This document shows positions 24,621 through 56,308 of a stretch of 64,000 nt of DNA, piece by piece; position 1 is the first letter of the stretch; each line of letters starts with the position of its first letter. The translations under genes were made by a program, and so were the position numbers. The stretch lies in the NCBI GenBank assembly GCA_963744315.1, contig CAVUTB010000018.1:74147-138146 (forward strand), read 5' to 3'. This DNA comes from an uncultured Acidobacteriota bacterium. Its GTDB lineage: Bacteria > Acidobacteriota > Vicinamibacteria > Fen-336. The notes below the pieces were generated by a model. The model was given only the letters and a program-made list of their open reading frames with translations, was not told where the DNA came from and searched no databases.

Positions 24621-30056
<5,436 letters not shown>

Positions 30057-30109
30057 GAAGGCTCCTCGGAGGATCGAAAGGAAGCTCTGCGAATTCATTC
30101 TAGACGGAA

Positions 30110-30170
30110 GGGGTCGGGTCTTGAATCAGCGCATCGCCGTCGCAAATGCGTCAATCCAAGACCTGACCCC
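30110..30170. repeat. REP/MITE-like nested palindromic element, copy 2
   Basis: GGGGTCGGGTCTTGAAT...ATCCAAGACCTGACCCC, about 90% identical to copy 1. Lies in the divergent region between fadB and the YkuK-like gene. Confidence 0.6.
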
Positions 30171-31102: not shown

Positions 31103-31177
31103 GGGTAGCTAGCTCAGTGGGTAGAGCGCCGAGCGGATAACTCGGAGGTCGCAGGTTCGAATCCTGCGGTTTCGTCG
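31103..31177 (+). tRNA. tRNA-like sequence whose acceptor stem does not pair (degenerate tRNA, remnant or assembly error)
   Basis: Canonical D arm (GCTCAGTGGGTAGAGC) and T arm (GCAGG-TTCGAAT-CCTGC). Anticodon arm CCGAG-CGGATAA-CTCGG. The 5' acceptor GGGTAGC is not complementary to the 3' GGTTTCG. Confidence 0.35.
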
Positions 31178-35554: not shown

Positions 35555-36070
35555 CTACGGCTTCTTGGCGTCCTCGGGCGGATCCGAGACCGGGACGTCC
35601 AGCACGACCTTCCAGCTTCCCTCGCTCTGCTTCTGCCAGACGACCACGTAGTGGCCCTTCTCCGTCGCGGCCTTCTTCTTGGCGTCGCTGAGCGTCATCG
35701 AGTAGGTGCCGGTCTCGTAGGCGATGTCGCCCGAGCGCGCGACCACGACCTTGTCGGCCGCGAACGAGAGCGCGAAGTTCGCATCCTTCATCATGCCGCC
35801 GATCGCCTCCCGGATCGCCGCCTTGCCGCTGGGATCGGGCAGGTTCGGCAGCATCACGGTGGCGTCCTCGGCGTAGAAGGAGGTGAACTTCTCCGGGTCC
35901 TTCGCCGCGGCGGCGGCGGCCCAGTCCTTGACGGCCGCGTGGATCGCCGCCTCGTCCTGCGGGCGCGTGTCGGGTGGCGGCGTGGGCAAGGGCGGCGCCG
36001 GCTTCTCCTGCATGCAGGCGACGAGCGTCAGGAGCAGGACGACCAGTCCGGATCGGCCGTGACGGAGCAT
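35555..36070 (-). CDS. Lipoprotein with a SnoaL/NTF2-like (DUF4440-like) fold
   Basis: Signal + lipobox MLRHGRSGLVVLLLTLVAC, with NTF2-like residues downstream. Confidence 0.5.
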   Translation of the reverse strand: MLRHGRSGLVVLLLTLVACMQEKPAPPLPTPPPDTRPQDEAAIHAAVKDWAAAAAAKDPEKFTSFYAEDATVMLPNLPDPSGKAAIREAIGGMMKDANFALSFAADKVVVARSGDIAYETGTYSMTLSDAKKKAATEKGHYVVVWQKQSEGSWKVVLDVPVSDPPEDAKKP

Positions 36071-36139
36071 GGATTCCTCCTCGGGTGGAACGCGCAAACT
36101 TGCTCCCGAAGGGCGTGCCTGTCAACCGGGAGAAGAACG

Positions 36140-36566
36140 TCAGCGCGAGCGCTTTCGGGAGCGCTTTGGCTTCCGCTCTGCGCGCGGCCCCGTCCAGCTC
36201 GGCGAAGACCTCGGCCGCGAGGTGGAAGGCCGAGTTCGCGGCGGGCAGCCCGCAGTAGACGGCCATCTGCAGCAGGACTTCCTTGATCTCCTCGCGGCTG
36301 ACGCCGTTTCGCAGCGCGGCCCGAAGGTGCAGCCCCAGCTCCTCGCTGCGGCCGAGCGCCACCATCGCCGCGAGCGTGATCAGGCTGCGCGTGCGTCTCG
36401 GCAGCCCGGGGCGCGTCCAGATCTCGCCCCAGGCGTAGCGGGTGAGCAGGTCCTGGAACTCGCGGTTGAAGGAGCTGCGCCCGCGCAGGGTCTGCTCGAC
36501 GTAGGCTTCACCCAGGACAGCGCGGCGCACCGCGAGCCCTCGTCGCGACCGCAGGCGCTCGTCCAC
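36140..36566 (-). CDS. pcaC: 4-carboxymuconolactone decarboxylase PcaC (3' end uncertain, probably a frame change)
   Basis: GTG 36566 is 1 bp after the pcaD stop. VRRAVLGEAYV...FQDLLTRYAWGEIWTRPGL...KEVLLQMAVYCGLPAANSAF is a near-canonical PcaC. The ORF has no stop until it overlaps the lipoprotein gene. Confidence 0.7.
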
Positions 36567-36567
36567 G

Positions 36568-37365
36568 TCAGTGGGCTCGCTCGCCGGTCAGGAACCCGAC
36601 GAGCTCCAGGTTGAAGGCGGCCGTGGCCTCGAGGTTGGACAGGTGCGCGGCCGGGAGCTCGACGTAGCGGGCCCCCGCGATGGCGCTCGCGAGCGCCTGG
36701 CCGTCCGCGGGCGGTGTCGCCGGATCGTGGCGGCCCGCGATCACCAGGGTGGGGGACCGGATCGCCCCGAGATCCGCGCGCTCGTCCGCATCGCGCAGCG
36801 CCGCGCAGGCTGCCGCGTAGCCGTGCGCCGGGGTTCTCTCGATGAGCCTTCGCACTCCCGCGACCACCTCGGGCGCCGCCCGGCGAAACTCGGGCGTGAA
36901 CCAGCGCTCGAGGATGGAAGCCGAGACGCTCCTCATGCCGCCCTCGCTCACGCTCTTGATGCGCGCGTTCCAGCTCTCGGCGGTGCCGATGCGCGCGCCC
37001 GTGTTGCTCAGCACGAGCTTGTCGATCCGCGAGGCGGCGTGGGCGCCCAGCCAGATCCCGATCAGGCCGCCCATCGACAGGCCGCAGAAATGGGCGCGCG
37101 CCACGCCGAGGACGTCGAGCAGGCCCAGCACGTCGTTGGCGAGCATCGCGAGCGTCCACGGCTCGGCGGCGAGCGAGGTGCCACCGTGGCCGCGCGTGTC
37201 GTAGCGCAGCACGCGAAAGCTCCGGGCGAGCACCTTCTCCTGCGGATCCCACATCGTGTGGTCCGCGCCGAGCGAGTGGGACAGCACGACGACCGGCGCC
37301 AGCGCCGGACCCGAGAGCTCGTAGAGCACCTTCAGGCCGGAGACCTCGGCCACCGACCTCGTCAC
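36568..37365 (-). CDS. pcaD: 3-oxoadipate enol-lactonase PcaD (alpha/beta hydrolase)
   Basis: GTG overlaps the pcaB TGA (GTGA). VLSHSLGADHTMWDPQ and GLSMGG nucleophile elbow. 266 aa. Confidence 0.8.
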   Translation of the reverse strand: MTRSVAEVSGLKVLYELSGPALAPVVVLSHSLGADHTMWDPQEKVLARSFRVLRYDTRGHGGTSLAAEPWTLAMLANDVLGLLDVLGVARAHFCGLSMGGLIGIWLGAHAASRIDKLVLSNTGARIGTAESWNARIKSVSEGGMRSVSASILERWFTPEFRRAAPEVVAGVRRLIERTPAHGYAAACAALRDADERADLGAIRSPTLVIAGRHDPATPPADGQALASAIAGARYVELPAAHLSNLEATAAFNLELVGFLTGERAH

Positions 37366-38733
37366 GAAGGGGTCTCCTCGGGCGCCCTCGCGCGCACCGC
37401 CGCGTGGCGCGCCAGCACGCGCTCGACCAGCGCGTCGGCGGCGCCGATGTAGCGGCGCGGATCGAACAGGCGCTCGAGCTCCTCGGGGGTGACGTGCCGC
37501 CCGACCGTCGGGGTCGTCGGCGAGCACCTCGCGCAGATGCCGCCCGTCGGCCTGCGCCCGGCGGCACGCCGCCTCCAGCAGCCTTTGCGCTGCGGCGCGC
37601 CCGGCCTTCTCCGCGACCGCCATCTGGACGGCCTCCGCGAACACGAGCCCGTGCGTCGCCTCGAGGTTCGCGGCCATGCGCGCCGGGTCGACGCGCAGCC
37701 CCGCCATCGTCTCGGTCAGGTGATGGAGCGCGCCGGCGGTGAGCCCGACGAGCTCGGGCAGCGTCTCCCACTCGGCGTGCCAGCCGCCGAGCCCGCGCTC
37801 GTCCTCCTGGATCATGGCGCCCAGCATCGTCGCGACGAGGCCGGGAGCGCGCGCGGCGGCCGCGAGGACGACCGCGGCGGAGACCGGGTTCTGCTTGTGC
37901 GGCATCGTCGAGGATCCGCCGCGTCCCTCCGCGACGGGCTCGGAGAGCTCCGCCACCTCCGTCTGGCTGTGCAGCGCGACGTCGCGCGCGATCTTGCCGA
38001 GCGAGCCGGCGAGCAGGCCGAAGGTCGTCGCCACCTCCGCGATGCGGTCGCGGTGGGAGTGCCAGGCGATGTCGGGGAGCGGGAGCCTGAGGTCGTCGGC
38101 GAGCGCCGTGGCCACCTCGCCGCTCCTGGGGCCGAGCGCGGCGAGCGTCCCCACGGCGCCGCCGAGCTGGAGCACGAGGGCGCGGCGCCGCAGCTCGTCG
38201 AACCGCTCGCGGTGGCGCAGGATCGCGTCCAGCCAGCCCGCGGCCTTCAGGCCGAAGGTCGTGGGCACGGCGTGCTGCATCCAGGTGCGGCCGGCGATCG
38301 GCGTCGCCCGGTGCTCGCTCGCGAGGGCCGCGAGCGCGTCCGCCAGCCGGTCGAGCTCGCCCTCGATCACGTCGAGAGCCGCGCGCAGCTGCAGCACCAG
38401 GCCGGTGTCGATCGCGTCCTGGCTGGTCGCGCCCCAGTGGACGAAGCGGGCCGCCTCCGCGTCCTGCTCGCGCACGTGCGCCGTGAGCTGCCGGATCAGC
38501 GGGATCACGAGATTGCCGGCGTTGGCCGCTTCGCGGGCGAGCGCCGGCACGTCGAATCGGTGAACGGCGCAGGCGGACTCGATCATCGAAGCGGCGGAAG
38601 CGGGGATGACGCCCGCCTGCGCTTCGGCGCGCGCGAGCGCGGCTTCGAAGTCGAGCATCGCCTGCAGGCTCGCCCGATCCGAAAAGCTTTCCTGGACGTC
38701 GTCCCAGCGGAACAGCGGCCCGAGCAGGCTCAA
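37362..38733 (-). CDS. pcaB: 3-carboxy-cis,cis-muconate cycloisomerase PcaB (fumarate-lyase superfamily), with a frame change at 37470-37480 from an extra C in a CCCC run
   Basis: LFRWDDV...LQAMLDFEAALARAEAQAGVIP and GSSTMPHKQNP (lyase signature). The corrected C-terminus reads ...LADDPTVGRHVTPEELERLFDPRRYIGAADALVERVLARHAAV. Confidence 0.8.
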
Positions 38734-38740
38734 GGGCACC

Positions 38741-39304
38741 TCAGCAGTCGAAGAATACAGTCTCTCCGGCTCCTTGCAGTACGAGGTTCCACTCGAGCGA
38801 TCCGTCGGGCCGCTTCGCGGCCACCAGGCTCGACCGGCGCGCGGCCGGGGCGAGGCCGAGAACGTGGTCGGTCGCATTGGCGGGCTCGTCCGGGAAGTAC
38901 AGGCGCGTGACGAGCCGCTTCATCAAGCCTCGCGCGAAGACCGAGACGGCGATGTGCGGGGCCTGCATCCCGCCGCGTGGGCCGGGCACCGGTCCCGGCT
39001 TGACGGTCGTGAACTGGAAGCGGCCGGTCGCGTCGGTGCCGACGCGACCGTAGCCCCGGAACGCTGGGTCGACGGGCTTCGTCTGGGTGTCCTCGGGGTG
39101 GGCGTAGCGGCCGTCGGGGTTCGCCTGCCAGAGCTCGAGCACGGCGTCGGGCACGCCCTGGCCGTCGCCGTCCAGGATCCGCCCGCTCACGCCGACGCGC
39201 TCGCCGCGCACGCCGCCGGGCGCGAGATCGTCGCGCAGCAGCCAGTCGAGCCCGATCGAGTAGAACGGCCCGACGGTCTGGGAGGTCGTGGCGACGAGCC
39301 CGCG
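38741..39304 (-). CDS. pcaG: Protocatechuate 3,4-dioxygenase alpha subunit PcaG
   Basis: TTSQTVGPFYSIGL...LELWQANPDGRYAHPED...PHIAVSVFARG. In frame with pcaH with no intervening stop. Confidence 0.75.
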   Translation of the reverse strand, partial: RGLVATTSQTVGPFYSIGLDWLLRDDLAPGGVRGERVGVSGRILDGDGQGVPDAVLELWQANPDGRYAHPEDTQTKPVDPAFRGYGRVGTDATGRFQFTTVKPGPVPGPRGGMQAPHIAVSVFARGLMKRLVTRLYFPDEPANATDHVLGLAPAARRSSLVAAKRPDGSLEWNLVLQGAGETVFFDC

Positions 39305-39990
39305 TCCGGCCTCCATCGGCGTCGCGTCACGGCCGCTCAGGATCATGTCGAAGCGGTAGCCGAGCGCGTGTCCGGGCAGCGTCGTGTCCCAGTCGAACTC
39401 GGAGACCAGCCGGCCGCGGGCCGTCTCGTCGGCCGTGCAGTTGAAGATCGGGTCGGCGGCGAGCAGCGGATCGCCGGGGAAGTACATCTGGGTGACGAGG
39501 CGCGTGGCGAAGGCGGGGCCGAACACCGAGAAGTGGATGTGCGCCGGCCGCCACGCGTTGTCGTGGTTGCCCCACGGATAGGCGCCGGGGCGGATCGTGA
39601 CGACGCGGTAGCGGCCCTCGTCGTCGGTCAGGATGCGGCCGGCGCCGCTGAAGTTCGGGTCGAGCGGAGCATCGTGCTGGTCGACGGCGTGGAGGTAGCG
39701 GCCCGCCGCGTTCGCCTGCCAGACCTCGACGAGCGTGCGCGGCAGCACCTTGCCGTCCTCGTCGAGCACGCGTCCGGCCACGACGATGCGCTCGCCCAGC
39801 GGGGGCTGGGCGTGCTGGCGCGTGAGGTCGCAGGCGCGGATCTCCCGGACCTCGCTCTCGAACGACGGGCCCGTCACCTCGGTGAGCCCGTGCGGGAGCG
39901 GCACGAGCGGCTGCGCCGGCGCGCGCTTGACGGACGACTTGTAGGGCGGGTGCAGGTACTCGGGCTGCGTGCCTGGACGCGGGCGCCGGT
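39305..39990 (-). CDS. pcaH: Protocatechuate 3,4-dioxygenase beta subunit PcaH (start codon not identifiable)
   Basis: PPYKSSVKRAPAQPLV...GERIVVAGRVLDEDGK...EVWQANAAGRYLH...AWRPAHIHFSVFG...MYFPGDPL match the intradiol dioxygenase beta chain. No ATG/GTG/TTG between the receptor stop and the conserved core. Confidence 0.75.
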
Positions 39991-40004
39991 AGCCCGAGAC
40001 GTCG

Positions 40005-42960
40005 CTCAGAATCTCACCCGAAGCCCGATCTGCATCTGGAACGGATTGAAGAGAGCCCGCGGCGTCAGGAAGCCGAGCAGCGGGTTGGGCGTCGCGTTCG
40101 GGTCGTCGCTGCCGAAGTTGGTGTTCAGGTCCTTGACGTTCTCGCGGTTGAAGAGGTTGAAGGCGTCGACGCTCAGCTCCGCGCGGACGCGCTCGCCGAG
40201 CGGGAACTCGCGCGCCACGCGCACGTCCACGGTCGCGTAGGACGGCCCGACGATGCGTGTTGCGGCCCAGCAGCCCGGTGCGGTCGGAGTTCGGGTTGCC
40301 GTCGCCGTTGGCGTCGCTGCCCGCGTACTGCGTGAAGCGCCGCCCGCCCTCCGCGGAGACCAGGAAGCTGAACTTGAAGTCCTTCAGCACCGGCACGTCG
40401 CCCGGCAGCTGGCTCAGGAACGACAGCGTGAAGCGGTGCGGCACGTGCTGGCGCGAGTAGGCGTCCTCGGCGGCGCCGTCGGGGCTCTGCCAGAGGTCGG
40501 CCAGGTTCGCGACCGAGTCGCTGCGCGAGCGCGTGCGCGAGTAGGTGTAGCTCGCGTGGAAGCCGATCCGCCCGCTGAAGCGCTTCTCGAGCTCGAGCGT
40601 CCCGCCGTGGTAGGTCGAGAAGCCCTGGTTGGTCGTGACGAAGAAGTCGCCGAGCGCGGGGTCGCGGCGGCCGCCGGCGAAGCTCGGCTTGCCCGAGGCG
40701 GTCGTCCCGGTCTGGACGGCGTTGAGGTTGGCGCCGTGGATCGGCACCTCGCGCGCCCCGACGTAGAGGTAGCTCGCCGAGACGGCGAGCCCGCTGCCGA
40801 GCTCCTGCGAGAGCTGGACGCTCGCCTGGTGCGCGTACGGGTTCTTCATGTTGCCGTCCATATTGTCCGCGAGACCGGCGCCGGTCGCGGCCGGGACGAC
40901 TCCCAGGGTCAGGAAGGCGAGCGCCGCCGGCGGGGCCGCGGGCCCCGCGACGGTGTTCTGGAAGAAGAGCCCGTGGACCGGCGCTACGCCGGGGAAGAGC
41001 GAGTCGGCGCTCGCGAGGTCGCCGCGCGCGGACCACTGGCTGGCCGTGAGCAGCTGGCCGACGCTGCTCGCGAGACGGTCGGTGAAGAGCCCGTAGCCGG
41101 CGCGGATCACGCCGCGCGGGCTGTAGGCGTACGCCGCGCCCACGCGCGCCTGGATGTTGTTCGTGTCCTTCGAGAGGATGAAGGGCTCCGGGTAGCTCTC
41201 GACGTCGTAGCGCAGCCCGTAGGTGAGGGTCAGCTTCGGCGTGGCTTTCCACTGGTCCTGCGCGAAGACGCCGAAGAGCGAGTGGCTCTCGTCGAAGCGC
41301 GCGTCGTCCTGCCACTGGGACGGGACGGCCTGCGACCACGAAGTGTCGTACAGCGGGCGGACGGGATCGTCCTTGAGCGTCGGCCACCAGAAGACGACCG
41401 GAGTGAAGCTGGCGTACGCGGTCAGGTTCGGAAAGATGATGCGCGCCGGGAAGAACAGGTTCCAGACCGCCTCGTCCTGGATCCGGTTGTAGTCGAGCCC
41501 GAGCTTGAACTGGTGGTTGCCGCGCGTCCAGAGCAGGCTGTCCGTGAGCTGCAGGCGCCGCTCGCGGTAGTGGTCCATGTCGGACGTGGTCTTGCCCATG
41601 ATGATGAGGTTCGAGATCTCGAGCGCCGGCTCGTTGACGGTCGCGTCGAAGTCGTAGCTGCGCTCCGCCCACTGGACGCGCGCCTCGTTGACGAGGCGCG
41701 GTGAGATCACCGACACCAGGTTCGCGACGACGGCCTGGTCGCGCACCTGGTTGTCGCGTGCCGCGCTCGACGCCGGCGAGGCGCGGCCGCCGCCGCCCGG
41801 GAAGTTGAGCGCATCCGAGTTCAGGTAGTTGTAGCGCACCGAGAGCCGGTTGTCGGTCGTCAGCTGGTGGTCGAGCTTGACCAGGAACTGGTCGTAGTCG
41901 TTGGTCTTCACCTGGTCGAGCGTCTCGGGCCGCAGGCCGAAGCGGCTGCGCACGCTGTTGAGCGTCGCGATGTTGTCGATGATCACCTGCGAGAAGCCGT
42001 TCGACTCCTCGCGCCGCTGCCCCTCGTAGTTCAGGAAGTAGAAGTGCGGTCCTTGACGAACGCCCCGCCGAGCGTCGCGCCGTACTGGTGCTGGCGGAGC
42101 ACGTCGGACTCCGGCTGGACCAGCGGCGAGCGCGCGGCGAGCGCGTCGTTCATCCCGAAGTAGTAGCCGGAGCCGTGCGTGTCGTTCTGTCCCGACTTCG
42201 TGACGATGTTGACGAAGCCGCCGAGCGCGCGGCCGTACTCCGCGAGGTAGGTGCTGTTCAGGATCCGGAACTCCTTCGCCGCCTCCTGCGAAGGCGTCGC
42301 CCGCGGCAGGCCGGTGAAGGTCTGGACGTTGTCGGCGCCGTCCACCTGGATGAGCGTGTTGAGCTCGGACTGCCCGCCGAACGAGAGGCGCGGCGCGGCC
42401 GCGACGCCGACGCCGGTGTCGGGCTCCTTGAAGGCTCCGCCGCCGATGTTCTCGCGGCCGATCGCGACGCCGCTCGACAGCTTCACGAAGTCCACGAAAT
42501 TGCGGCCGATGTTGGGCAGCCCCTCGATCTCGCTCGTGCCGACCACGCGCGACAGCTCGGCCTTGGAGCTCTCGACGAGCGAATCCTGGTTGACGACCGT
42601 GACTTCCTCGCTCATCTGGCCCACGCTCATGGTGACGTCGGCGACGCCGAAGCCGCCGACGCTCAGCACGACGCCGCTCCGCACCACGGTCTTGAACCCC
42701 GAGGCTTCGACGCGCAGCTCGTAGCCGCCGGGCTCGAGGTTGGCGAGGCTGTAGCGGCCGGCGGCGTCCGTCGTGTCACGGCGGGTGACGCCGGTCGCGG
42801 GATTGCGCGCGCTGACCGTGGCGCCCGTCAACACGGCGCCCGACTCGTCGCGCACGACTCCCGTGAGCGTGCTGGTGGCCGTCTGGGCCGAGGCGACTCC
42901 CGCCGCCAGCGTCCAGCAGAGGGTGAGGGCCGTCGCCGCGTGAGTCGATCGGAGCGCCAT
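40005..42960 (-). CDS. Oar-like TonB-dependent receptor, first gene of the pca operon, with one frame change near 41990-42030
   Basis: Signal peptide MALRSTHAATALTLCWTLAAGVASA. CarboxypepD_reg-like N-terminal domain (GVVRDESGAVLTGATVSARN). Barrel ending ...FQMQIGLRVRF. Confidence 0.8.
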
Positions 42961-43046
42961 TGCAGCCTCCTAGCACTTGCCCAGGGCGGGAACTCTCGCC
43001 GAAGTTACCGCCACGCCGTCGAGGCTGTCAACCCGAATATCGTTTG

Positions 43047-43068
43047 ACTGGTGCGATAATCGACCAGT
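43047..43068. promoter_or_regulatory. Candidate operator in the divergent pcaR / pca-operon intergenic region
   Basis: ACTGGT-gCGATAATCGa-CCAGT. The 9-bp palindrome CGATAATCG is flanked by 6-bp inverted arms. Confidence 0.35.
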
Positions 43069-43114
43069 ACTGCGGAAGAAGGCGCCGGCCCGGCGGGCGA
43101 GCGACCCGGACTAC

Positions 43115-43865
43115 ATGCTGTCGCTGGCGCGCGGGCTCCAGGTGATCCGCGCCTTCGGCCGCGAGCGGCCGGTGCTCGGGGTCGCCGAGGTGGCGCGGCT
43201 CAGCGCGATGTCGCGCGCCGCCGCCCGCCGCTGCCTGCACACGCTGGGCGTGCTCGGCTACGTCGCGGGAGAAGGCGGGCGCTACGCGCTCGCCCCTCGC
43301 GTGCTGGCGCTCGGCCACGCGTACCTGGGCTCGGCGCCGGTCGCGCAGGCCGCCCAGCCCGTCCTCGAGCGCGTGGCGGAGCGCCTGCACGAGTCGTGCT
43401 CGCTCGCGGTGCTCGACGCCGACGAGATCGTCTACGTGGCGCGCGCGGCCACGCGCCGCATCATGGCGGTGGGCCTCGCCGTGGGCAGCCGCCTGCCGGC
43501 CTACTGCACCTCGATGGGCCGCGTGCTGCTGGCGTTCGCGAGCGACGCCGAGCGCTCGGCCTATCTGCGCCGCGTCAAGCCCGTGCGGCACACGCCCCAC
43601 ACCACGGTCGGCCGGCGCGCGCTCGCCGCCGAGCTCTCGCGCGTGCGCTCGGCCGGCTACGCCATCGTCGACCAGGAGCTGGAGCTGGGCTTGCGCTCGA
43701 TGGCGGTCGCCCGTGCGGCGGCCGGACCAGGCCGTGGTCGCGGCGATGAACGTGGGCGTGCACGCCGCGCGCGTCGAGAGCGAGACGATGCGGCGCGAGT
43801 ATCTGCCGGTGCTGCTGGAGGCGGCCGAGGAGGTGGGGCTCGCCCTCGCGCACCGGCTGTCCTAG
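43115..43865 (+). CDS. pcaR: IclR-family regulator PcaR/PcaU-like, with a frame change at ~43715 from an extra base in a CCC run
   Basis: DYMLSLARGLQVIRAF ... LGYV... is an IclR HTH followed by an effector domain. The corrected C-terminus reads ...MAVPVRRPDQAVVAAMNVGVHAARVE...LALAHRLS, TAG at 43863-43865. Start at ATG 43115 is tentative. Confidence 0.7.
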
Positions 43866-43907
43866 GTGCGCCGAGCCCCCGAGTACTTGGCTTTATCATC
43901 TCCCTCG

Positions 43908-45008
43908 ATGCCGGCACCCTATCGCGCCGACCAGGTGGGCAGCTTCCTGCGGCCGGGCGAGCTGCTCGCGGCGCGCAGCTCGATGGCCGCCGAGCCGGAG
44001 AAGCTGCGGGCGCTCGAGGATCGCCACGTGCTGCGCGTGATCGAGAAGCAGAAGGAGCTCGGCTTCGAGGTCTTCACCGACGGCGAGCTGCGGCGCCGGA
44101 ACTTCATGAGCGACTTCACGGACGCGGTGGAGGGGTTCGACCTCGGCGACGCGGTCGCCCGCTCGTGGCAGGCCGACGTCGCCAAGGCCGCAGCCACCAG
44201 CAAGGTGGCCGGCATCGTGACGGGCAAGCTGCGCGCCGTGCGGCGGCTGACCGGCCACGAGCTGCCGTTCCTGAAGGCCCACAGCCCCGGCCCGATCAAG
44301 GTCACGCTGCCGAGCGCCACGCAGTTTCCTGCGATCTCCTGGAAGCGCGGGATCACGGATGCCGTCTATCCGGACCAGCTGGCGCTGCTCGCCGACATCG
44401 TCGCGATCCTGAAGGCCGAGCTCGCCGCGATAGCCGCGGAAGGTGCCAGCTACATCCAGATCGACGCGCCGCGCTACAGCTACTTCATCGACCCCAAGTG
44501 GCGCGAGTGGATCGAGACGGAGATGCGCATCGCGCCGGACACGCTGCTCGACGCTTCGATAGAGGCCGACAACGCCTGCCTCGAGGCCGCGCGGCGCCCG
44601 GGCGTCACGCTGGCGATGCACCTGTGCCGCGGCAACAACCGCAGCCACTGGTACGCCGAGGGCGGCTACGACGGGATCGCCGAGCGGCTCTTCTCCCGGA
44701 TGGCGGTGGACCGCTTCCTGCTCGAGTACGACGACGCGCGCTCGGGCAGCTTCGAGCCGCTGCGCTTCGTGCCGAAGGGCAAGGCCGTCGTGCTCGGCCT
44801 CGTGAGCAGCAAGCTGCCGCAGCTCGAGGATCCCGACCAGCTCGCGCGCCGCATCGACGAGGCCGCCCGTCACGTGCCGCTCGAGAACCTCGCCTTGAGC
44901 CCGCAGTGCGGCTTCGCCTCCACCATGGAAGGCAACCTGCTCACCGAGGACGAGCAGTGGGCGAAGCTGCGGCTCGTGGTCGAGACGGCGCGGCGCGTCT
45001 GGAGCTGA
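43908..45008 (+). CDS. Cobalamin-independent methionine synthase (MetE C-terminal / UroD-fold) family protein
   Basis: ADQVGSFLRP...IQIDAP...HLCRGN... resemble the MetE catalytic-domain zinc-site context. 366 aa, between pcaR and pobA. Confidence 0.7.
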   Translation: MPAPYRADQVGSFLRPGELLAARSSMAAEPEKLRALEDRHVLRVIEKQKELGFEVFTDGELRRRNFMSDFTDAVEGFDLGDAVARSWQADVAKAAATSKVAGIVTGKLRAVRRLTGHELPFLKAHSPGPIKVTLPSATQFPAISWKRGITDAVYPDQLALLADIVAILKAELAAIAAEGASYIQIDAPRYSYFIDPKWREWIETEMRIAPDTLLDASIEADNACLEAARRPGVTLAMHLCRGNNRSHWYAEGGYDGIAERLFSRMAVDRFLLEYDDARSGSFEPLRFVPKGKAVVLGLVSSKLPQLEDPDQLARRIDEAARHVPLENLALSPQCGFASTMEGNLLTEDEQWAKLRLVVETARRVWS

Positions 45009-45024
45009 GCCGGGGGCGGATCAG

Positions 45025-46206
<1,182 letters not shown>

Positions 46207-46224
46207 GCCGAGCTCGTGCCGGCG

Positions 46225-47086
46225 CTAGCCCGGCGCCAGGCCGAGCAGGCGTGCCGCGTTCTCCTTCAGGATCAGCGGCCGCACCTCGTCCTTGACGGCG
46301 AGCGTCTCGAAGTCCGCGAGCCAGCGGTCGGGCGTGAGGAGCGGATAGTCCGATCCGAACAGCACCTTGCGCTTGAGCAGCGTGTTCGCGTACTGCACGA
46401 GCGTCGGCGAGAAGTACTTCGGCGACCAGCCCGAGAGGTCGATGTGGACCTGCGGCTTGTGCAGGCAGATCGAGATCGCCTCGTCCTGCCAGGGGAAGGA
46501 CGGGTGCGCCAGGATGATCGGCAGGTCGGGAAAGTCGACCGCGACGTCGTCGATCGGCATCGGGTCGCCGTACTTGAGGCGCACGCCGCCCCCGCCGCGC
46601 ATGCCGGAGCCGATCCCGCTGTGCCCGGTGTGGAAGATCACCGGCAGCCGCGCCTCGGCGAACACCTCGTAGAGCGGATACGCGAGGCGATCGTTCGGGA
46701 CGAACTGCTGGAGCGGCGGGTGCAGCTTGAGCCCGCGCACGCCGCCCCTCGCGAGGAGCCGGCGGGCCTCGTCGACCGCCGCCGTGCCGCGCGTCGGATC
46801 CAGGCTCACGAAGGCGAGCGCCACGTCCGGCGTTCTCGGCCGCGAAGTCGAGCACGGCGTCGTTCGTCACCTGCGGGCGCCCGCTCAGCCGCTCGTCCAC
46901 GGTGAACACGACGCAGGCCATCCGCCGCGAGCGGTAGTACTCGGCGACCTTGTCCCAGTCGGGGTCGGCGTCGCTTCCGAAGTACTTGCGCGGCCGCCTC
47001 GTCGGTCGCGCCGCGGTCGCCGGGGGCGTGCAGGTGCACGTGGACGTCGATCGCCGCCAGGCGGGAGACGTCGAGTGCCTGGCCCA
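46225..47086 (-). CDS. Amidohydrolase-2 family protein (LigW/ACMSD-like metal-dependent hydrolase/decarboxylase), with frame changes
   Basis: N-terminus MGQALDVSRLAAIDVHVHLH. C-terminal KLHPPLQQF...IFHTGHS...ILAHPSFPW...LFGSDYP. Confidence 0.6.
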
Positions 47087-47101
47087 TCGGCCGCGGCTCG
47101 C

Positions 47102-48977
47102 TCACGCGCCTGCCTCGAGGACGATCACGTGGGCAGCGGCGCGGGCGGCGTAGAGCCCCTCGACCCAGCGCCGCGCGGTTCTCGAGCACCGCCTTCTGGT
47201 TGACCGAGCCCTTGTCGGTGAGCTCGCCGGCGTCGAGCGAGGGCGGCTGGTCGAGCAGGACGGCGCGCGCGACGAGAGTCGTGCTGCCGGTGCTCTCGCC
47301 CGCGACCGCCTGCAGGATCTGGCGGAACCTCGAGAGCACGCGCGGATCGTCGAAGAGCGTCCGCGCCGGGGCCGCGGCCTCGAGCTCGGGGCACAGTCCG
47401 CGGCACAGCGCGCGGTTCGGAAACACGAGCGCCGACACGAACGCCCGATCGTGGCCCGCGATCACGACATCCTGTACGTAGCCCGCCCCATGCGCCAGGA
47501 TCCGCGCGCGCAGCGCGCCGACGTGGACCCACGTTCCCGTCGAGAGCTTGAAGTCCTCGGCGAGCCGGCCGTCGAAGACGAGCCCCTTCGCGGGGTCGCC
47601 CGCGTCGACGCAGCGCATCGCGTCGCCCAGCCGGTAGAAGCCCTCCGCGTCGAAGGCCGCCTTCGTGAGCGCGTCGTCCCCGAAGTAGCCCGGAGTGACG
47701 TTCGGGCCGCGCACGCGGGCCTCGAGCTTCTCGGCCACGGGAGCCAGCTTGAGCTCGAGGCCCGGGACGGGAAAGCCCAGGAAGCCGGCCCAGGCGCCGG
47801 CGCGGGCGGTGCAGAGCGCGAAGGGCGCGGTCTCGGTGGCGCCCATGCCCGTCACCCAGAGCAGCTCCTCGCCGCAGCTCTCGACCGCCAATCCCTGGAG
47901 CTCGTCGAAAACCCGCTGCGTCAGGCCGGCCGCGGCGTAGAAGAACAGCTTGAGCTTCGCGAAGAAGCGCTCGCGCAGCACCGGGTCCGCGCGCAGGTGC
48001 GGCAGCAGCATCTCGTAGGTGCGCGGCACGGTGAAGTGCGCCGTGGCGGACACCTCGCGCAGGTTCCGGACCGTGGCGTCGAAGAGGCCGGGCAGCGGAC
48101 GGCCTTCGTCGATGTAGAGCGTGCCGCCGTGGTGGAGCACGATGCCGAAGTTGTGGTTGCCGCCAGCCGTGTGGTTCCAGGGCAGCCAGTCGCAGAGCAC
48201 GGGCGGCTCCTCGGCCAGGAACGGGAACACGGCCTCGAGCATGGCCTGATTGGAGCAGAGCATCCGCTGCGTGTTGACGACGCCCTTCGGCCGGCCGGTC
48301 GAGCCCGAGGTGTAGAGGATCTTCGCGATCGTGTCGGGGCCGACCCTCGCGCGAGCCTCGTCGACGGCGGCGGTGACCTCGGTCTCGGCGAGCGCCGCGA
48401 ACGGGGTCGCTCGCATCCCCTCGGGCGCCGACACCGACGTGACGAGCTCCGCGCCCGCCGGCAGCACGGCGGCGAGCGCCCGCTCGAAGTCCCGGCCCTC
48501 TGCCGCGAACACGAGCCCCGGGCTCAGGCGGCCCACGATCTGGCGCAGCGTGGCGTGGTCGCGCGCCTGCAGCGAGTAGGCCGTCGCGAGCGGGGCGTAC
48601 GGCACTCCGCAGTGCATCGCCGCGAGCGCGAGCAGCGCGTGCTCGATGCTGTTCCCCGAGAGGATCACGAGCGGCCGCTCGGCCGAGAGCCGCCGCTCGA
48701 GGAGCGCTGCCGCGATCCGCCGCACGGCTGCGAGCGCCTCGGCGTACGTGAGCGTGCGCCAGCCAAAGGCGGCGTCGCGCTGCGCCAGGAAAGCGCGATC
48801 GCCGGCGCGCTCGGCCCAGTGCTCGAGCCGTTCGGTGATCCGCCTCGGGTAGGGCCCGAGCGTGTGCCGCGACTGCAGGTAGAGGACGCCGTCCGAGCCT
48901 CGGCGCACGGCGGTGTCGGCTGCCGCGACGTTCACCGGCCGCACGCGCCGCGCGGTCGCGGGCGCGTTCGAGCTCAC
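47102..48977 (-). CDS. Feruloyl-CoA-synthetase-like AMP-dependent acyl-CoA ligase (Fcs type), with a frame change ~47150 in a GGG run
   Basis: GTG start overlaps the upstream TGA (GTGA). AMP-binding motif ILYTSGSTGRPKGV. C-terminus TDKGSVNQKAVLENRAAL(V)EGLYAARAAAHVIVLEAGA. Confidence 0.7.
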
Positions 48978-51125
48978 GGCCGCGCCTCCGCCGCCTCGAG
49001 CCTCCGGTCGTGCTCGCGGAAGCTCGAGCCCTCGCGTGCGAGGCGCGCGAGGAGCGGCGCCGGCTCGAAGCGCGGGCCGTGATCGCGCTGGAGCGCCAGC
49101 AGCCGCTCGTGGATCCTGCCGAGCCCGACGCTGTCGGCGTAGTAGAGCGGACCGCCGCGGAAGGCGGGGAAGCCGTAGCCGGTCAGGTAGATGACGTCGA
49201 TGTCCGCGGCACGCTGGGCGACGCCCTCGCCCAGCACGCGCGCGCCTTCGTTCACGAGCGCGTAGATCGTCCGCTCGAGGATCTCCTCGCGGGAGATCGC
49301 GCCGTCGCTCGATGCGGTTCGCGCGGGCGACCGACTCCACGAGCGCCGTCACCTCGGGATCCGGGATCGGCTTGCGATCCTCTCCGTAGCGGTACCAGCC
49401 CTTGCGGACCTTCTGACCCAGACGGCCCAGCTCGACCAGCAGGTCGGCGACGAGGGGCTTGCGCCCGTCCTCGCCCTCGAACTGGCGCAGCTCCTTGCGG
49501 ACGCGCCAGGCGACGTCGAGCCCGCCCATGTCGTCGACCGCGAAGATCCCCATCGCCATGCCGAAGTCCGTGAGCACCTGGTCCACCTGCTCCGGCGAGG
49601 CGCCTTCCTCGGCCAGGAACTGCGCCTCGTACATGTACGGGAACATGATGCGGTTGCCGACGAAGCCCGGCGCGTTGCGCACGACCACGCCCACCTTGGA
49701 GAGGCGCTTCGCGAACTGGAGCGCAGCCGCGACGACGCCTTGGCCCGTGGCCACGCCGCGCACGATCTCGACGAGCCGCATCACGTGGGCCGGGCTGAAG
49801 AAATGCAGGCCGATCGACCGACTCGGGCACTCCCGAGACCGCGCCGAGCTGGTCGATGTCGAGCGTCGAGGTGTTGCTGGCCAGGATGGCGCCGGGCCGC
49901 GCCTGACGCCCGATCTCGCCGAACACCTCCTTCTTGATCGTCATGTTCTCGTACACCGCCTCGATCACGAGGTCGGCCGACGCGCAGCCGTCGTAGCCCG
50001 AGACGCTCCGGATCCGCGCGAAGCGCTCCGCGGCCGCGGCGGCCGTCAGGCGTCCGCGATCCACCGACGACTGGTAGCTGCGCTGGATGGTGGAGAAGCC
50101 GCGCGTGAGCGCCTCCGTGCTGCCGTCGCTCAGGCTCACGCGCAGGCCGGCGTTGGCGCAGGCCATCGCGATCGACGCGCCCATCGTGCCCGCCCCCAGG
50201 ATCGCCACCTGCTCGATCGCGGCCGGCGTTCCGTTTCCCGCGAGTCCCGGCAGCTTGGCGGCGCTCCGCTCGGCCAGGAACCCGTGCAGCATGGCGCCGG
50301 GCCTGCTCGGACCGCACGCAGCCGAGCGCCAGCGCGCGCTCGTGACGGCAGCCCTCGTCGAAGGGGAGCGTCGCCGCGGCCGCGATCGCCTGGATCGCCG
50401 CGAGCGGCGCGGTCTGATGGGCGCGCGTCTTGCGCGCCTGCTCGCGAGCCGCGGCGAAGAGCGGCTCGTTCGACGCGGCGTCGCCGAGCTTCTCGGTCCG
50501 CTCGCGGGTCCGCGGGTGGGGCGCGCCGCGCCGTGCCGCGTCGCGGGCGAAGGCGACCGCGCTCTCGATGACGTCGCCGTCGAGGACGGCGTCCACGAGC
50601 CCGGCGCGGCAGGCGTCCTCCGCCCCGATCGGCTTGCCGCCCACCACCATCTCGAGCGCTTTCGCGACGCCGACGAGGCGAGTCAGCCGTTGCGTTCCCT
50701 CCGCGCCCGGAATGATGCCGAGGTTCACCTCGGGCAGGCCCAGGCGCGCCTCGGGATCGGCCAGGCGATAGTGCCCGGCCATCGCCAGCTCGAGGCCGCC
50801 GCCGAGCGCCGTGCCGTTGAGCGCGATCACGATCGGCTTGCGCGAAGTCCTCGACGAGCTGCAGCAGCCCGTGGAAGTCGGGCGGCTCGACGGCGTGGTC
50901 GAGGACCGCCGCCTCGAGCTCGCGGATGTCGGCGCCGGCCGCGAACGTCCGCCCGCTGCCCGTGATCACGACCGCGCGCAGCTCCGGATCCGTTCCCAGG
51001 CGGCCGAGGGCCGAGGCGAGCGCGCTCCGCACCGGCTCCGCGAGCGCGTTCACGGGCGGGTGGTCGATGCGGACGACGGCGACGTCGCCCCGGCGCTCGA
51101 GCTGGACGAGCTCAGGCGAGCCCAT
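48974..51125 (-). CDS. Bifunctional enoyl-CoA hydratase / 3-hydroxyacyl-CoA dehydrogenase (FadJ/FadN-like), with at least 4 frame changes
   Basis: Crotonase N-terminus (VVRIDHPPVNAL...FAAGADI...LNGTALGGGLELAMA). NAD-binding VAILGAGTMGASIA. C-terminal dehydrogenase dimerisation domain ...RLVEIVRG... Parts fall in ORFs 50136..51131, 49781..50830, 49252..50292 and 48974..49255. Confidence 0.7.
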
Positions 51126-52416
51126 GGCCACCGTGCATCAGCGCGTAGTCCCTGCGGTAGGGGCGCCACGTCGCGAAGAAGAGGATCGCCGAGACGAGCG
51201 ACGCCGTGCCGACGGTCAGCGCGAGCGACCAGCCGACCATCTGCCCGCTCCGGAACACGTAGTCGTTCAGCAGTCCCGGCAGCGCGGGGCCGAGGATCAG
51301 GCCGCCGAGGTTCAGCGTGAAGACCTGCAGCGCCCCGATCTGGCCGCGCACCTGGTTCGGCAGGATCAGCTGCAGCGAGGCGTAGACGCTGCCGATCGGC
51401 ATGGCGAGGAAGAAGAAGGCGGGGCCCAGCAGCGCGAGCTGCATCTCGAGCGCGCGGCATCGACAAGGACAGCGTGAAGAAGGCGCCGGCGCAGAGCGTC
51501 GCCAGCACGCCGACCCGCAGCGGCGCTTCGGCGATCCCGCGGCGCTGCCAGTAGTCCGCGAGCCGCCCGCCGCTGTAGGACCCGAGCGAGGCCGGTGGCG
51601 AGAGAGATGACGCCGAGCGTCACGCCGGCCTGGCGGAGCGACCAGCCGTGCACGCCGCACGAAGTAGGTCGGCAGCCACGCCTGCTGGGCGTAGTTGCAG
51701 AGCGCCTGGGCCGCGAAGCCGAAGCAGATCCCGGCCACCGAGGCGAGCCGCAGCTTCACCTCGCGCGCGACGTCCGCGAGGCGGAGCCGCGCCGGCTCGC
51801 CGCCCGTGGTGCGCAGCAGGTCCTTTCGCGGCGGCTCGCGGATCGTGAGGGCCAGGAGCGCCACCAGCAGGCCCGGCAGCCCGACGATCAGGAACGTGAG
51901 CCGCCAGGAGCCGACGGCGCCGATGATGAGCCCGCCCAGGATCAGGGCCAGCCCGGAGCCGAAGAAGATGCCCATCGAGAAGATGCTGAGCGCGGTCGCC
52001 AGCCGCCCCTTGGGGAAGTAGTCCGAGAGCAGCGAGAAGGCGGACGGCGAGAGCGTCGCTTCGCCGATCCCCACGCCCATCCTCGCGAGGAACAGCGTGG
52101 CGAAGCTGCGCGCTCCCGCGCAGAGCGTGGTCATCAGGCTCCAGCAGAAGATGCCCGCGGCCACCAGGTTGCGCCGGTTCTTGGTGTCGGCGATGCGGCC
52201 CATCGGAATCCCGAGCAGCGTGTAGAAGACGCCGAACGCCAGCCCCTGCAGCAGGCCGATCTGGGTGTCGCTGATCCCGAGCTCGAGCTTGATCGGCGTC
52301 ACCAGCAGGCCGAGGATCTGGCGGTCGATGAACGACAGCGTGTTGCACGCCATCAGGACGATGGCGACGTACCAGGCGTGGCGCAGCTCGCGGTCGGCTT
52401 CGACGCTTGTTTCCAT
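51112..52416 (-). CDS. MFS transporter, with about 3 frame changes between 51360 and 51700
   Basis: Twelve-transmembrane pattern. MFS motif A-like GRIADTKNRR. N-terminus LSFIDRQILGLL. Confidence 0.65.
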   Translation of the reverse strand: METSVEADRELRHAWYVAIVLMACNTLSFIDRQILGLLVTPIKLELGISDTQIGLLQGLAFGVFYTLLGIPMGRIADTKNRRNLVAAGIFCWSLMTTLCAGARSFATLFLARMGVGIGEATLSPSAFSLLSDYFPKGRLATALSIFSMGIFFGSGLALILGGLIIGAVGSWRLTFLIVGLPGLLVALLALTIREPPRKDLLRTTGGEPARLRLADVAREVKLRLASVAGICFGFAAQALCNYAQQAWLPTYFVRRARLVAPPGRRDARRHLSRHRPRSGPTAAGGSRTTGSAAGSPKRRCGSACWRRSAPAPSSRCPCRCRALEMQLALLGPAFFFLAMPIGSVYASLQLILPNQVRGQIGALQVFTLNLGGLILGPALPGLLNDYVFRSGQMVGWSLALTVGTASLVSAILFFATWRPYRRDYALMHGGHGLA

Positions 52417-52456: not shown

Positions 52457-53067
52457 TCATAGACGATGGGCGATCTTGTCGGCCATGCGCACCAGCTCGG
52501 CGAGCGAGTGGGCGCCCATCTTCTGCATCACGCGGGAGCGGTGCACCTTGACGGTCTTCTCGGTGGTGCCGAGCCGGGCGCCCACCTGCTTGTTGAGCAG
52601 GCCCGTGACGATCAGGCCGAACACGTCGCGCTCGCGCGGAGTGAGCGTGCCGAGCCGCTCCTGCAGCTGCGCGCGCTCGGCGCGCTGGATGCGGCGCTCG
52701 CCGTCCTGCTCGAGGCCCCGCGCCACGGCGGCGAGCAGCGTCTCGTCCGAGACCGGCTTCTCCAGGAAGTCGACGGCCCCGCTCTTCATCGCCTGCACGC
52801 CGCTCTGCACGTCGGCGCGGCCGCTGATGAAGACGAGCGACAGCTCGATGCCGCGCTCGAGCAGCAGCTCCTGGAGGTCGAGCCCGCTCAGGCCGGGCAT
52901 CTTCAGGTCGACGACCAGGCAGGCGGGGAGATCGTCGAGCTCGACGCCGATCAGGAAATCCTCGGCCGTGCCGAACGCGGTCGTCTGATATCCCGCGTTG
53001 CGCAGGACGCGCGTGAGCGCGCGTCGCACGCCGGCATCGTCGTCGACGAGGTAGACACGCGTGCCCG
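52457..53067 (-). CDS. LuxR/FixJ-family response regulator (REC + HTH)
   Basis: TTG 53067. VYLVDDDAGVRRAL...VVDLKMPGLSG. C-terminal LTPRERDVFGLIVTGLLNKQVGARLGTTEKTVKVHR. Confidence 0.7.
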
Positions 53068-53195
53068 GCTGAGCCAAGTCTCTTCCCCGACCCCATACTA
53101 GCACCGGGCTCGCCCGTGAACGGATCGCGGACGCCCGCAGGACAGAACGCTCAGGACCTGAACGCGCCAGTCGACGCAAGGGCGGCTAAGTCCTG

Positions 53196-55910: not shown

Positions 55911-55936
55911 GTGAGAGGTTACGTCCGAGAGCGCGC

Positions 55937-56308
55937 ATGACTCGCGGGACCGTCTTTCTCGTCGACGACGACGCTTCGGTCCGCAAGGCCCTGCAGCGCC
56001 TGATCCGGGCCGCGGGGTACGACGTCGAGTCGTTCGCGGACGCGGCGGGCTACCTGGCGTCCCCCGTGCCCTCGCTGCCCGCCTGCATCGTGCTCGACAT
56101 CCGGATGCCGGCGATGAGCGGCTTCGAGCTGCAGAGCGCCATCGCCGGCACGCCGCGCTCGCTGCCCGTCGTCTTCATCACCGGCCACGGCGACGAGGCC
56201 GTGCGCAGCCAGGCGCTCGAGGCCGGCGCCGTGGACGTGCTGTTCAAGCCCATCGACGAGGAGGAGCTGGTGTCGGCCATCGAGAAGGCGCTCGAGACGC
56301 GCCACTAG
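55937..56308 (+). CDS. CheY-like single-domain response regulator
   Basis: ATG 55937. MTRGTVFLVDDDASVRKAL...VLDIRMPAMSGFEL...VVFITGHGD. Confidence 0.75.
   Translation: MTRGTVFLVDDDASVRKALQRLIRAAGYDVESFADAAGYLASPVPSLPACIVLDIRMPAMSGFELQSAIAGTPRSLPVVFITGHGDEAVRSQALEAGAVDVLFKPIDEEELVSAIEKALETRH

Follow-up and report, generated by a model that had tools for sequence, protein, structure and literature searches.

A Single-Domain MetE-Family Gene of Acidobacterial Aromatic Catabolism and Its Possible Role in Aryl O-Demethylation

Introduction

O-demethylation is a recognized bottleneck in the funnelling of lignin-derived aromatics, and Acidobacteria are among the most abundant and least tractable phyla of the soil. 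Here we analyzed a stretch of 64,000 nucleotides (hereafter the window) from contig CAVUTB010000018.1 of an uncultured Acidobacteriota bacterium (assembly GCA_963744315.1). It contains, between genes for a PcaR-type regulator and for 4-hydroxybenzoate 3-monooxygenase (PobA), a gene here called METE (43908..45008, plus strand), which encodes a 366-amino acid (aa), single-domain MetE-family (Meth_synt_2) protein. The link of METE to aromatic catabolism is strong and kept across many relatives, and we hypothesize that its product methylates homocysteine at the expense of a methoxylated aromatic acid, for which vanillate is the likeliest candidate.

Organization of the Locus

METE starts with an ATG at 43908 and runs uninterrupted over 366 codons to a TGA stop codon at 45006-45008. 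A longer version beginning with the GTG at 43866 is possible, but the ATG is favoured because 366 aa is the modal length among close homologues (100% coverage). The GC content by codon position (0.69/0.47/0.94) follows the pattern typical of coding sequences in this 71% GC window, and the reading frame is a genuine gene. An exact-sequence database look-up of the protein returned no identical record. The stop codon of the preceding IclR gene (43863-43865) lies 42 bp 5' of the METE start and the GTG of pobA (45025) 16 bp 3' of the METE stop, distances that a preliminary description of this DNA had given and that our coordinates confirm. METE is probably co-transcribed with both the pcaR-like IclR gene and pobA. 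A promoter and terminator scan of 42700-46500 found no match, such a scan being uninformative for a 71% GC acidobacterium.

The map of the surrounding aromatic island was drawn with the help of two gene-called metagenomic relatives, L001 (96.8% DNA identity) and L002, and of the P0028 contig. On the minus strand, 5' of the regulator, lie genes for a pcaC-like decarboxylase of the CMD family (36151..36540), a pcaD-like alpha/beta hydrolase of the enol-lactone hydrolase type (36571..37375), PcaB (37365..38742; Lyase_1/ADSL_C, 3-carboxymuconate cycloisomerase type), a fused PcaHG protocatechuate 3,4-dioxygenase (38744..40039), whose homologue has a PCDO_beta_N and two Dioxygenase_C domains, and a frame-changed TonB-dependent receptor (40040..42969; CarboxypepD_reg and OMP beta-barrel). 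The plus strand carries the IclR/PcaR-type regulator (43068..43865; HTH_IclR and IclR_C), the start of which is approximate and taken from the 265-aa length of its homologue, followed by METE and pobA (45025..46206; NF006091, which it matches with 476 bits, the cutoff being 351). On the minus strand again, a cou-like operon comprises an Amidohydro_2 protein in the position of CouO (46225..47105, with two frame changes), an AMP-binding acyl/aryl-CoA ligase of ~624 aa (47100..48975), an enoyl-CoA hydratase/3-hydroxyacyl-CoA dehydrogenase fusion of ~710 aa (48975..51125, with several frame changes) and, at its end, an MFS transporter (51115..52416). In the window as in L001, L002 and the P0028 contig, this operon is adjoined by genes for a response regulator of the GerE type and a histidine kinase with MASE1/GAF/PAS domains (52460..56174, minus strand); the two are likely a second regulator of the island. 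The 3.9-kb segment with the TonB receptor and pcaR (40002-43879), present in the window and the P0028 contig, is missing from L001, in which pcaHG and METE diverge directly from one another; very close relatives are polymorphic for this indel.

Compared with L001 and with homologous proteins, the region 36000-51200 of the window shows many single-base insertions and frame changes (for example at 37511, 42046, 43708, 45609, 45710, 45773, 46827, 46992 and 49300-50840), which hit pcaB, the TonB receptor gene, pcaR (near 43708), pobA, the Amidohydro_2 gene and the hydratase/dehydrogenase gene, METE being free of them. In pobA, the three insertions relative to L001 (45609, 45710 and 45773) garble some 55 codons (about residues 195-250), after which the frame is restored. 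Most likely, these changes are noise of a long-read assembly and not the mark of pseudogenes.

In the cou pathway of Rhodococcus, hydroxycinnamates are activated with CoA and beta-oxidized, and CouO, which belongs to the amidohydrolase superfamily, frees the aromatic acid (PMC4737184). The minus-strand operon of the window (46225-52416) has the same composition, i.e., Amidohydro_2, AMP-forming CoA ligase, hydratase/dehydrogenase and MFS transporter, and by analogy it would convert p-coumarate to 4-hydroxybenzoate and ferulate to vanillate. PobA handles 4-hydroxybenzoate, while nothing recognizable in the window handles vanillate. Indeed, no Rieske or P450 motif was found in any frame of the window, and neither GCV_T, VanA/VanA_C nor a second MetE-family gene was found in the scanned open reading frames (ORFs), the Pfam scan covering all but 18.8-21.6 and 24.6-27.9 kb, about 6 kb far from the cluster. 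The absence of a vanAB- or ligM-type demethylase, on which the preliminary description relied, thus stands for the scanned window; as a general argument it fails in some relatives, as discussed below.

Elsewhere in the window, a second enoyl-CoA hydratase/3-hydroxyacyl-CoA dehydrogenase fusion is encoded at 27906-30125 (minus strand), 20 kb from the cou-like one; the cou-operon region of L002 has only a weak, short DNA match to it (68% identity over ~430 bp). A tRNA match at 31110-31167 (plus strand) covers only model positions 8-63.

Protein Fold and Active Site

METE matches the Pfam family Meth_synt_2 (PF01717) with 54.9 bits against a cutoff of 21 (E 1e-14, residues 31-361), and its best sequence match in the PDB is 1YPX (E 4e-63; profile E 4e-123), a Listeria "putative B12-independent methionine synthase family protein". 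An AlphaFold model obtained with a 98-sequence alignment (mean pLDDT 94.4) has 1YPX, 1XPG and 3RPD (MesD) as top Foldseek matches (probability 1.00, TM 0.71-0.75) and groups with the C-terminal barrels of the Thermotoga maritima and fungal MetE, whereas UroD matches are much weaker (TM ~0.53). As modelled, the fold is a (beta/alpha)8 barrel of the MetE C-terminal-barrel type. Conservation of the Zn ligands H238, C240, E273 and C334 is complete or reaches at least 90% (98 family members; all 83 members of the METE clade), and the homocysteine triad S12, E60 and D186, which aligns to Ser22, Glu73 and Asp188 of 3RPD, is invariant; it corresponds to S433, E484 and D599, the homocysteine-binding residues in Escherichia coli (Price 2021, PMC7857596). 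Judging from these residues, it is almost certain that homocysteine is activated by METE in the form of a zinc thiolate. The catalytic-domain-only MetE fold with a Zn site foreseen in the preliminary description is borne out by Pfam, the PDB, AlphaFold/Foldseek and residue conservation, but its joint label of "MetE/UroD fold" has to be narrowed to the MetE C-terminal barrel. A UroD-like decarboxylase and a corrinoid methyltransferase were also considered and are ruled out by residue conservation and weak fold similarity.

METE hence belongs to the MetE catalytic-domain superfamily, where it is neither a canonical MetE, nor MesD, nor a corrinoid-linked core MetE, nor a known O-demethylase. With canonical two-barrel MetE (EC 2.1.1.14), METE has in common the C-terminal barrel, the HxC...E...C Zn site, the Ser/Glu/Asp homocysteine site and, presumably, the thiolate-SN2 chemistry. 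However, canonical MetE is ~750 aa long, while METE, with 366 aa, has no N-terminal barrel (no Meth_synt_1 match) and reaches only 22.6 bits with TIGR01371, the cutoff of which is 929.95. Core MetE relatives are single-domain and folate-independent proteins with conserved Zn and homocysteine sites (PMC7857596, PMC7005905). METE resembles MesA/MesB/MesC and MesD/MesX in this respect, but it is a distant relative of this group (3RPD, E 6e-7; NF006589 and NF003317 well below cutoff) and its own context is aerobic aromatic catabolism. No MesX (DUF1852) partner occurs among the Pfam-annotated METE neighbours, and no corrinoid protein or Wood-Ljungdahl gene lies beside METE in the window or the annotated loci. 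Among 86 neighbour ORFs, one representative per cluster, B12-binding domains occur in two neighbour clusters only, alongside three radical-SAM clusters (per-family counts that may or may not share a protein).

The closest likeness is with 1YPX, with YxjG/YxjH of Bacillus/Lactobacillus and with the PRK06520/PRK06233 family, all of the same length and fold as METE. The Zn ligands, the homocysteine triad and many Arg/Gly positions are identical, while overall identity is only ~28-40% and the donor-site loops differ. METE is related to both NCBIfam models but lies outside them, as it stays below their cutoffs (278 versus 313 for PRK06520; 233.9 versus 576 for PRK06233). Regulation differs as well, METE being found with IclR regulators within aromatic clusters and the Firmicute proteins with methionine T-box/S-box elements and luxS. 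For YxjH, methionine-specific T-box control and co-transcription with luxS have been described (PMC6004538), which supports methionine formation as the output of the family. A search with Rfam for S-adenosylmethionine (SAM) or B12 riboswitches and T-boxes in the window and in seven related loci without aromatic context returned tRNAs only.

Regarding O-demethylases, the known classes are the Rieske, tetrahydrofolate (THF)-dependent and P450 enzymes (PMC6021390), besides the anaerobic corrinoid systems. METE has no VanAB Rieske, LigM/DesA GCV_T or GcoA P450 domain and falls outside these families. In the reading set out below, METE would be a homocysteine S-methyltransferase that depends on zinc and comes from the single-domain "methionine synthase II" branch within the MetE family.

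Donor Side of the Active Site

If the acceptor side of METE is that of the family, its donor side is its own. Comparing 83 acidobacterial METE proteins with 90 other family members, we found 17 clade-signature positions (N65, M67, R85, T138, Q139, F140, P141, I143, K146, R189, S191, Y192, K197, W198, W201, H247 and Y249), of which each METE protein matches 15-17, whether linked to PcaHG or to LigB, and each of the other members at most four. In T. maritima MetE, methyl-THF is contacted by the DMV motif, Trp539 and Glu583 (PMC539065), and in a profile alignment the signature falls on these very elements. The DMV motif aligns to N65-F66-M67 of METE (Asp replaced by Asn65), the Trp539 loop to residues 137-146 with I143 at the Trp position, and the Glu583 helix to residues 189-192, where an ungapped alignment sets Y192 opposite the Glu; HMMER places E200 there instead, so that the position of this third contact is ambiguous, while all three contacts appear replaced. 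As far as aligned residues tell, the acceptor/metal half of the active site is frozen family-wide and the donor half variable between subfamilies, yet frozen within the METE clade, which is the pattern that methyl donors differing between subfamilies would predict.

Genomic Context Across Relatives

In close relatives (97%, 88% and 81% METE identity, Vicinamibacteria-like), METE lies between pcaHGBDC and the cou-like operon, and it keeps this place in L002 although pobA is missing there. The wider sample, with one genome per species, comprises at least 80 loci with a METE identity of 66-77%, nearly all from metagenome-assembled genomes (MAGs) of Acidobacteriota. It is biased, being drawn mostly from Terriglobia, and the closest Vicinamibacteria are not among the matches listed. 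Neighbours were counted by tblastn with those of the window and by clustering the adjoining ORFs de novo and annotating them with Pfam. In 42 of the 80 loci, a ring-cleavage enzyme for protocatechuate or gallate, either PcaHG or an extradiol dioxygenase of the LigB type, is encoded within 10 kb of METE, and 47 loci have some pca, lig or van gene. A PcaR-like IclR gene is nearby in 44 loci and stands directly 5' of METE on the same strand in 24. An aldehyde dehydrogenase gene follows METE immediately in seven loci and lies within 7 kb in 15. We estimate that chance would bring a random gene to within 10 kb of pcaHG, taken as single-copy, in well under 1% of genomes (20 kb in ~5 Mb).

Moreover, the linkage is kept across at least ten distinct gene orders and seen in two classes of Acidobacteriota, aromatic contexts being scattered over most METE clades of a neighbour-joining tree. 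Besides the order IclR-METE-pobA, we found IclR-METE flanked by pobA-pcaCDB-HG on its opposite side, Cupin_7-METE with pcaHG-pcaIJ, METE-aldehyde dehydrogenase with pcaGH, aldehyde dehydrogenase-METE with pcaCDBGHJI, a VanA-like gene with IclR-METE and pcaHG, and a TonB-dependent receptor gene beside METE. In four loci, the order is Amidohydro_2 (LigI/LigJ family), METE, LigB-type dioxygenase and two RraA-like (LigK/GalC-type) aldolases. This is a meta-cleavage cluster for protocatechuate (4,5-type) or gallate, in which METE, by analogy, holds the place that an O-demethylase would occupy. As METE adjoins clusters of both the ortho and the meta type, it is kept beside both kinds of dioxygenase, which require a vicinal diol. 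Further partners in METE clusters are Cupin_7, DUF5938, pyrroloquinoline quinone (PQQ) dehydrogenase and E1-type thiamine pyrophosphate (TPP) enzymes. Several MAGs have METE twice, each time in another aromatic cluster (L046/L061, L066/L076 and L068/L070), and in some clusters two or three distinct members of the MetE family stand together. Cultured carriers were sought, and all named relatives are MAGs. Conservation in the pca/pob neighbourhoods of relatives, which the preliminary description had named as a check, is clearly positive both in the close relatives and in the wider sample.

Several neighbours of METE deserve mention in their own right. In two loci (L026:9103-19571 and L041:9106-19603), METE shares a cluster with a 42%-identical family member that has a different donor-loop signature; these clusters also contain a pair of IclR genes along with genes for a lipoyl-domain protein, for E1 alpha/beta TPP subunits, for a xylose-isomerase-like protein (AP_endonuc_2), for DUF5938/Sacchrp_dh and for an acyl-CoA ligase. 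A DUF5938/saccharopine-dehydrogenase-like protein (~370 aa) and a 522-aa AMP-binding ligase form a recurrent pair beside pca genes and METE (L012:15652-18393 and 16-19 other loci) and may catalyze an uncharacterized step on aromatic side chains. Finally, 13 loci contain a second, distant MetE-family gene, "MetE2" (333-339 aa, PRK04326-like, with the Zn and homocysteine residues kept; for example L018:5769-8542, L009:6383-9104, L061:11132-13590 and L005:14696-17154), which in every case has a putative SAM-dependent methyltransferase as its partner, either AprA-MT2-like (~560 aa) or a Pfam-negative protein of 483 aa with a VLEIGVGMG motif.

Proposed Reaction and Alternatives

We propose that METE has been recruited into aromatic catabolism controlled by PcaR/IclR regulators. 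Its methyl donor would be a methoxylated aromatic acid, most likely vanillate, held in the clade-specific pocket with its carboxylate bound by R85, R189 and K146. The Zn-bound homocysteine thiolate would attack the O-methyl carbon in an SN2 reaction, and the leaving phenolate would take up its proton from a signature Tyr (Y192 or Y249) or His (H247), yielding methionine and protocatechuate, the latter being the substrate of PcaHG. METE and PobA would hence form a co-transcribed funnelling pair under the PcaR-like regulator, converting vanillate and 4-hydroxybenzoate, respectively, to protocatechuate. That METE is a homocysteine S-methyltransferase with such a donor and a partner of PobA is a tentative proposition, which we rate below an even chance. 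A little more doubtful still is the broader view that METE stands for a further class of aryl O-demethylases, i.e., Zn enzymes independent of oxygen, folate and corrinoid that pass vanillate-type methyl groups to homocysteine. With this goes, just as conjecturally, the view that the "methionine synthase II" family consists of homocysteine methyltransferases whose donor loops specify different methyl donors.

Parallels to the proposed reaction exist outside the MetE family. LigM transfers a methyl group from an aryl-O-CH3 directly, by a cofactor-free SN2 reaction, to a weaker nucleophile, N5 of THF, and betaine-homocysteine methyltransferase (BHMT) couples a catabolic demethylation directly to Zn-dependent methylation of homocysteine. 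LigM and DesA do the job proposed for METE, converting vanillate and 3-O-methylgallate to catechols by direct methyl transfer without O2, and they too are placed near genes for protocatechuate or gallate cleavage (PMC6021390). However, their GCV_T fold is unrelated to that of METE, their acceptor is THF instead of the proposed homocysteine, and LigM-like genes coexist with METE in four loci. BHMT, which is discussed in PMC12478193, and Bmt belong to a different Pfam family (S-methyl_trans), and their donor is a quaternary amine in place of the aryl ether proposed for METE.

Several points weigh against aryl ether demethylation by METE. We know of no enzyme of the MetE fold or family that uses or demethylates aryl methyl ethers, and a literature search for a MetE-like enzyme tied to protocatechuate, vanillate or O-demethylation returned nothing relevant; the mentions of "MetE" in the lignin literature proved to be strain genotypes or journal DOIs. 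Under catabolic flux, one methionine would be formed per vanillate, which would call for a methyl sink. The signature, made up of Arg/Lys and aromatic residues, would suit folate too, and the pocket roles that we attribute to individual residues are read from alignments. Moreover, VanA-like (Rieske) genes lie near METE in five of the 80 loci, and in four loci LigM-sized GCV_T proteins (468-498 aa) are encoded 1-2 kb 5' of IclR-METE (L055:7367-8863, L070:958-2394, L061:6467-8908 and L064:6423-8907). In L061 and L064, the GCV_T gene is adjoined by a gene with a weak likeness to MTHFR, its 22.7 bits falling short of the cutoff, and the GCV_T and MTHFR-like genes beside METE may form a module for THF-dependent O-demethylation and one-carbon metabolism. 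With VanA-like and LigM-like genes near some copies, METE is thus not always the "missing" demethylase. Finally, 21 of the 80 loci have no recognized aromatic gene near METE, family members at 46-51% identity sit in non-aromatic contexts, and the distant members P0131 (Amycolatopsis thermophila) and P0126 have no clear aromatic context. As these distant members lie in unrelated contexts, the aromatic linkage belongs to the METE clade and not to the whole family.

Among the alternatives, the one that survives best is that METE is a single-domain methionine synthase using 5-methyl-THF, or another soluble one-carbon carrier, supplied by a LigM/DesA-type demethylase nearby or elsewhere in the genome. 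METE would then give back free THF and recover the methyl groups of lignin as methionine, in co-regulation with the pca genes. The four LigM-like loci, two of them with MTHFR-like genes, fit this arrangement, and in Sphingobium an MTHFR is known to couple with THF-dependent demethylases (PMC11868366). The known donors of the MetE family are all N-methyl or Co-methyl compounds, the homocysteine site of METE is intact, and the signature, with its basic and aromatic residues, could accommodate a pterin and a glutamate tail. Yet the N-terminal barrel, which in MetE supplies the folate-binding residues Lys104, Arg15 and Lys18 (PMC539065), is missing from METE, and the three methyl-THF contacts of the C-terminal barrel are replaced (Asp by Asn65, Trp539 by Ile143 and, in the ungapped alignment, Glu583 by Tyr192). 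For a universal donor, moreover, it is unexpected that the donor loops are not common to the nearest family members. There is no GCV_T gene near METE in 76 of the 80 loci or in the window, yet METE hugs ring-cleavage genes, and folD, purU and metF are not recurrent neighbours. Lastly, characterized core MetE enzymes reject methyl-THF (PMC7005905). We consider this alternative unlikely, though it deserves to be kept in view.

A weaker alternative is that METE is an ordinary back-up methionine synthase under PcaR-type control, with no role in carbon flow, of use because growth on catechols or quinones inactivates the main MetE/MetH or raises the demand for methionine. It would account for the fully conserved Zn and homocysteine sites and for the methionyl-tRNA synthetase-family ORFs among the METE neighbour clusters. 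It would also agree with the Firmicute family members, which respond to how much methionine is available and share a transcript with luxS (PMC6004538), and with the B. subtilis YxjG, which is named in titles and abstracts on thiol stress. However, the window and the seven related loci contain no methionine-responsive RNA element, and at least ten rearrangements have left the linkage standing, which extends to both ortho- and meta-cleavage clusters. The clade-specific donor site, the two METE copies in different aromatic clusters of a single MAG and the clusters with two or three different MetE-family genes resemble what is seen with substrate-specific catabolic enzymes. We regard a back-up function as improbable.

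Slightly less probable again is that the Zn-activated thiol of METE serves another alkyl transfer or addition, with a different thiol acceptor or a non-methyl electrophile. The family is chemically versatile at its donor site, epoxyalkane:CoM transferase being a MetE-family enzyme with a non-methyl electrophile, and the partners of METE, from Cupin_7 to E1-type TPP enzymes, are diverse. Against this, the homocysteine/methionine-specific triad S12/E60/D186 is invariant, and what the contexts share is a dioxygenase requiring a vicinal diol. As for a housekeeping paralogue caught between pcaR and pobA by chance, which the preliminary description had left open, the loci without aromatic neighbours and the unrelated contexts of distant relatives would allow it, but it is rejected as most improbable because linkage to ring-cleavage genes in 42 of 80 loci, against well under 1% expected by our own estimate, is kept through many gene orders in two classes and in loci that are not near-clonal (METE identity 66-77%, differing architectures). 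What the preliminary description had advanced, a candidate for the handling of aromatic O-methyl groups, thus holds through synteny for the aromatic part, while demethylation itself stays at the level of a proposal.

Concluding Remarks

Should METE prove to draw on methyl-THF instead, a methionine synthase dedicated to the pca regulon would itself be a new feature of one-carbon handling in lignin degradation. If, by contrast, METE does demethylate vanillate-type substrates, it would be a single-polypeptide demethylase operating without O2, NAD(P)H or folate, hence mechanistically new and attractive for engineering, and the release of formaldehyde would be avoided. The widespread "methionine synthase II" family would, moreover, gain its first concrete donor hypothesis, and the largest biogenic pool of methyl ethers in soil would be tied directly to methionine and SAM metabolism in Acidobacteria.

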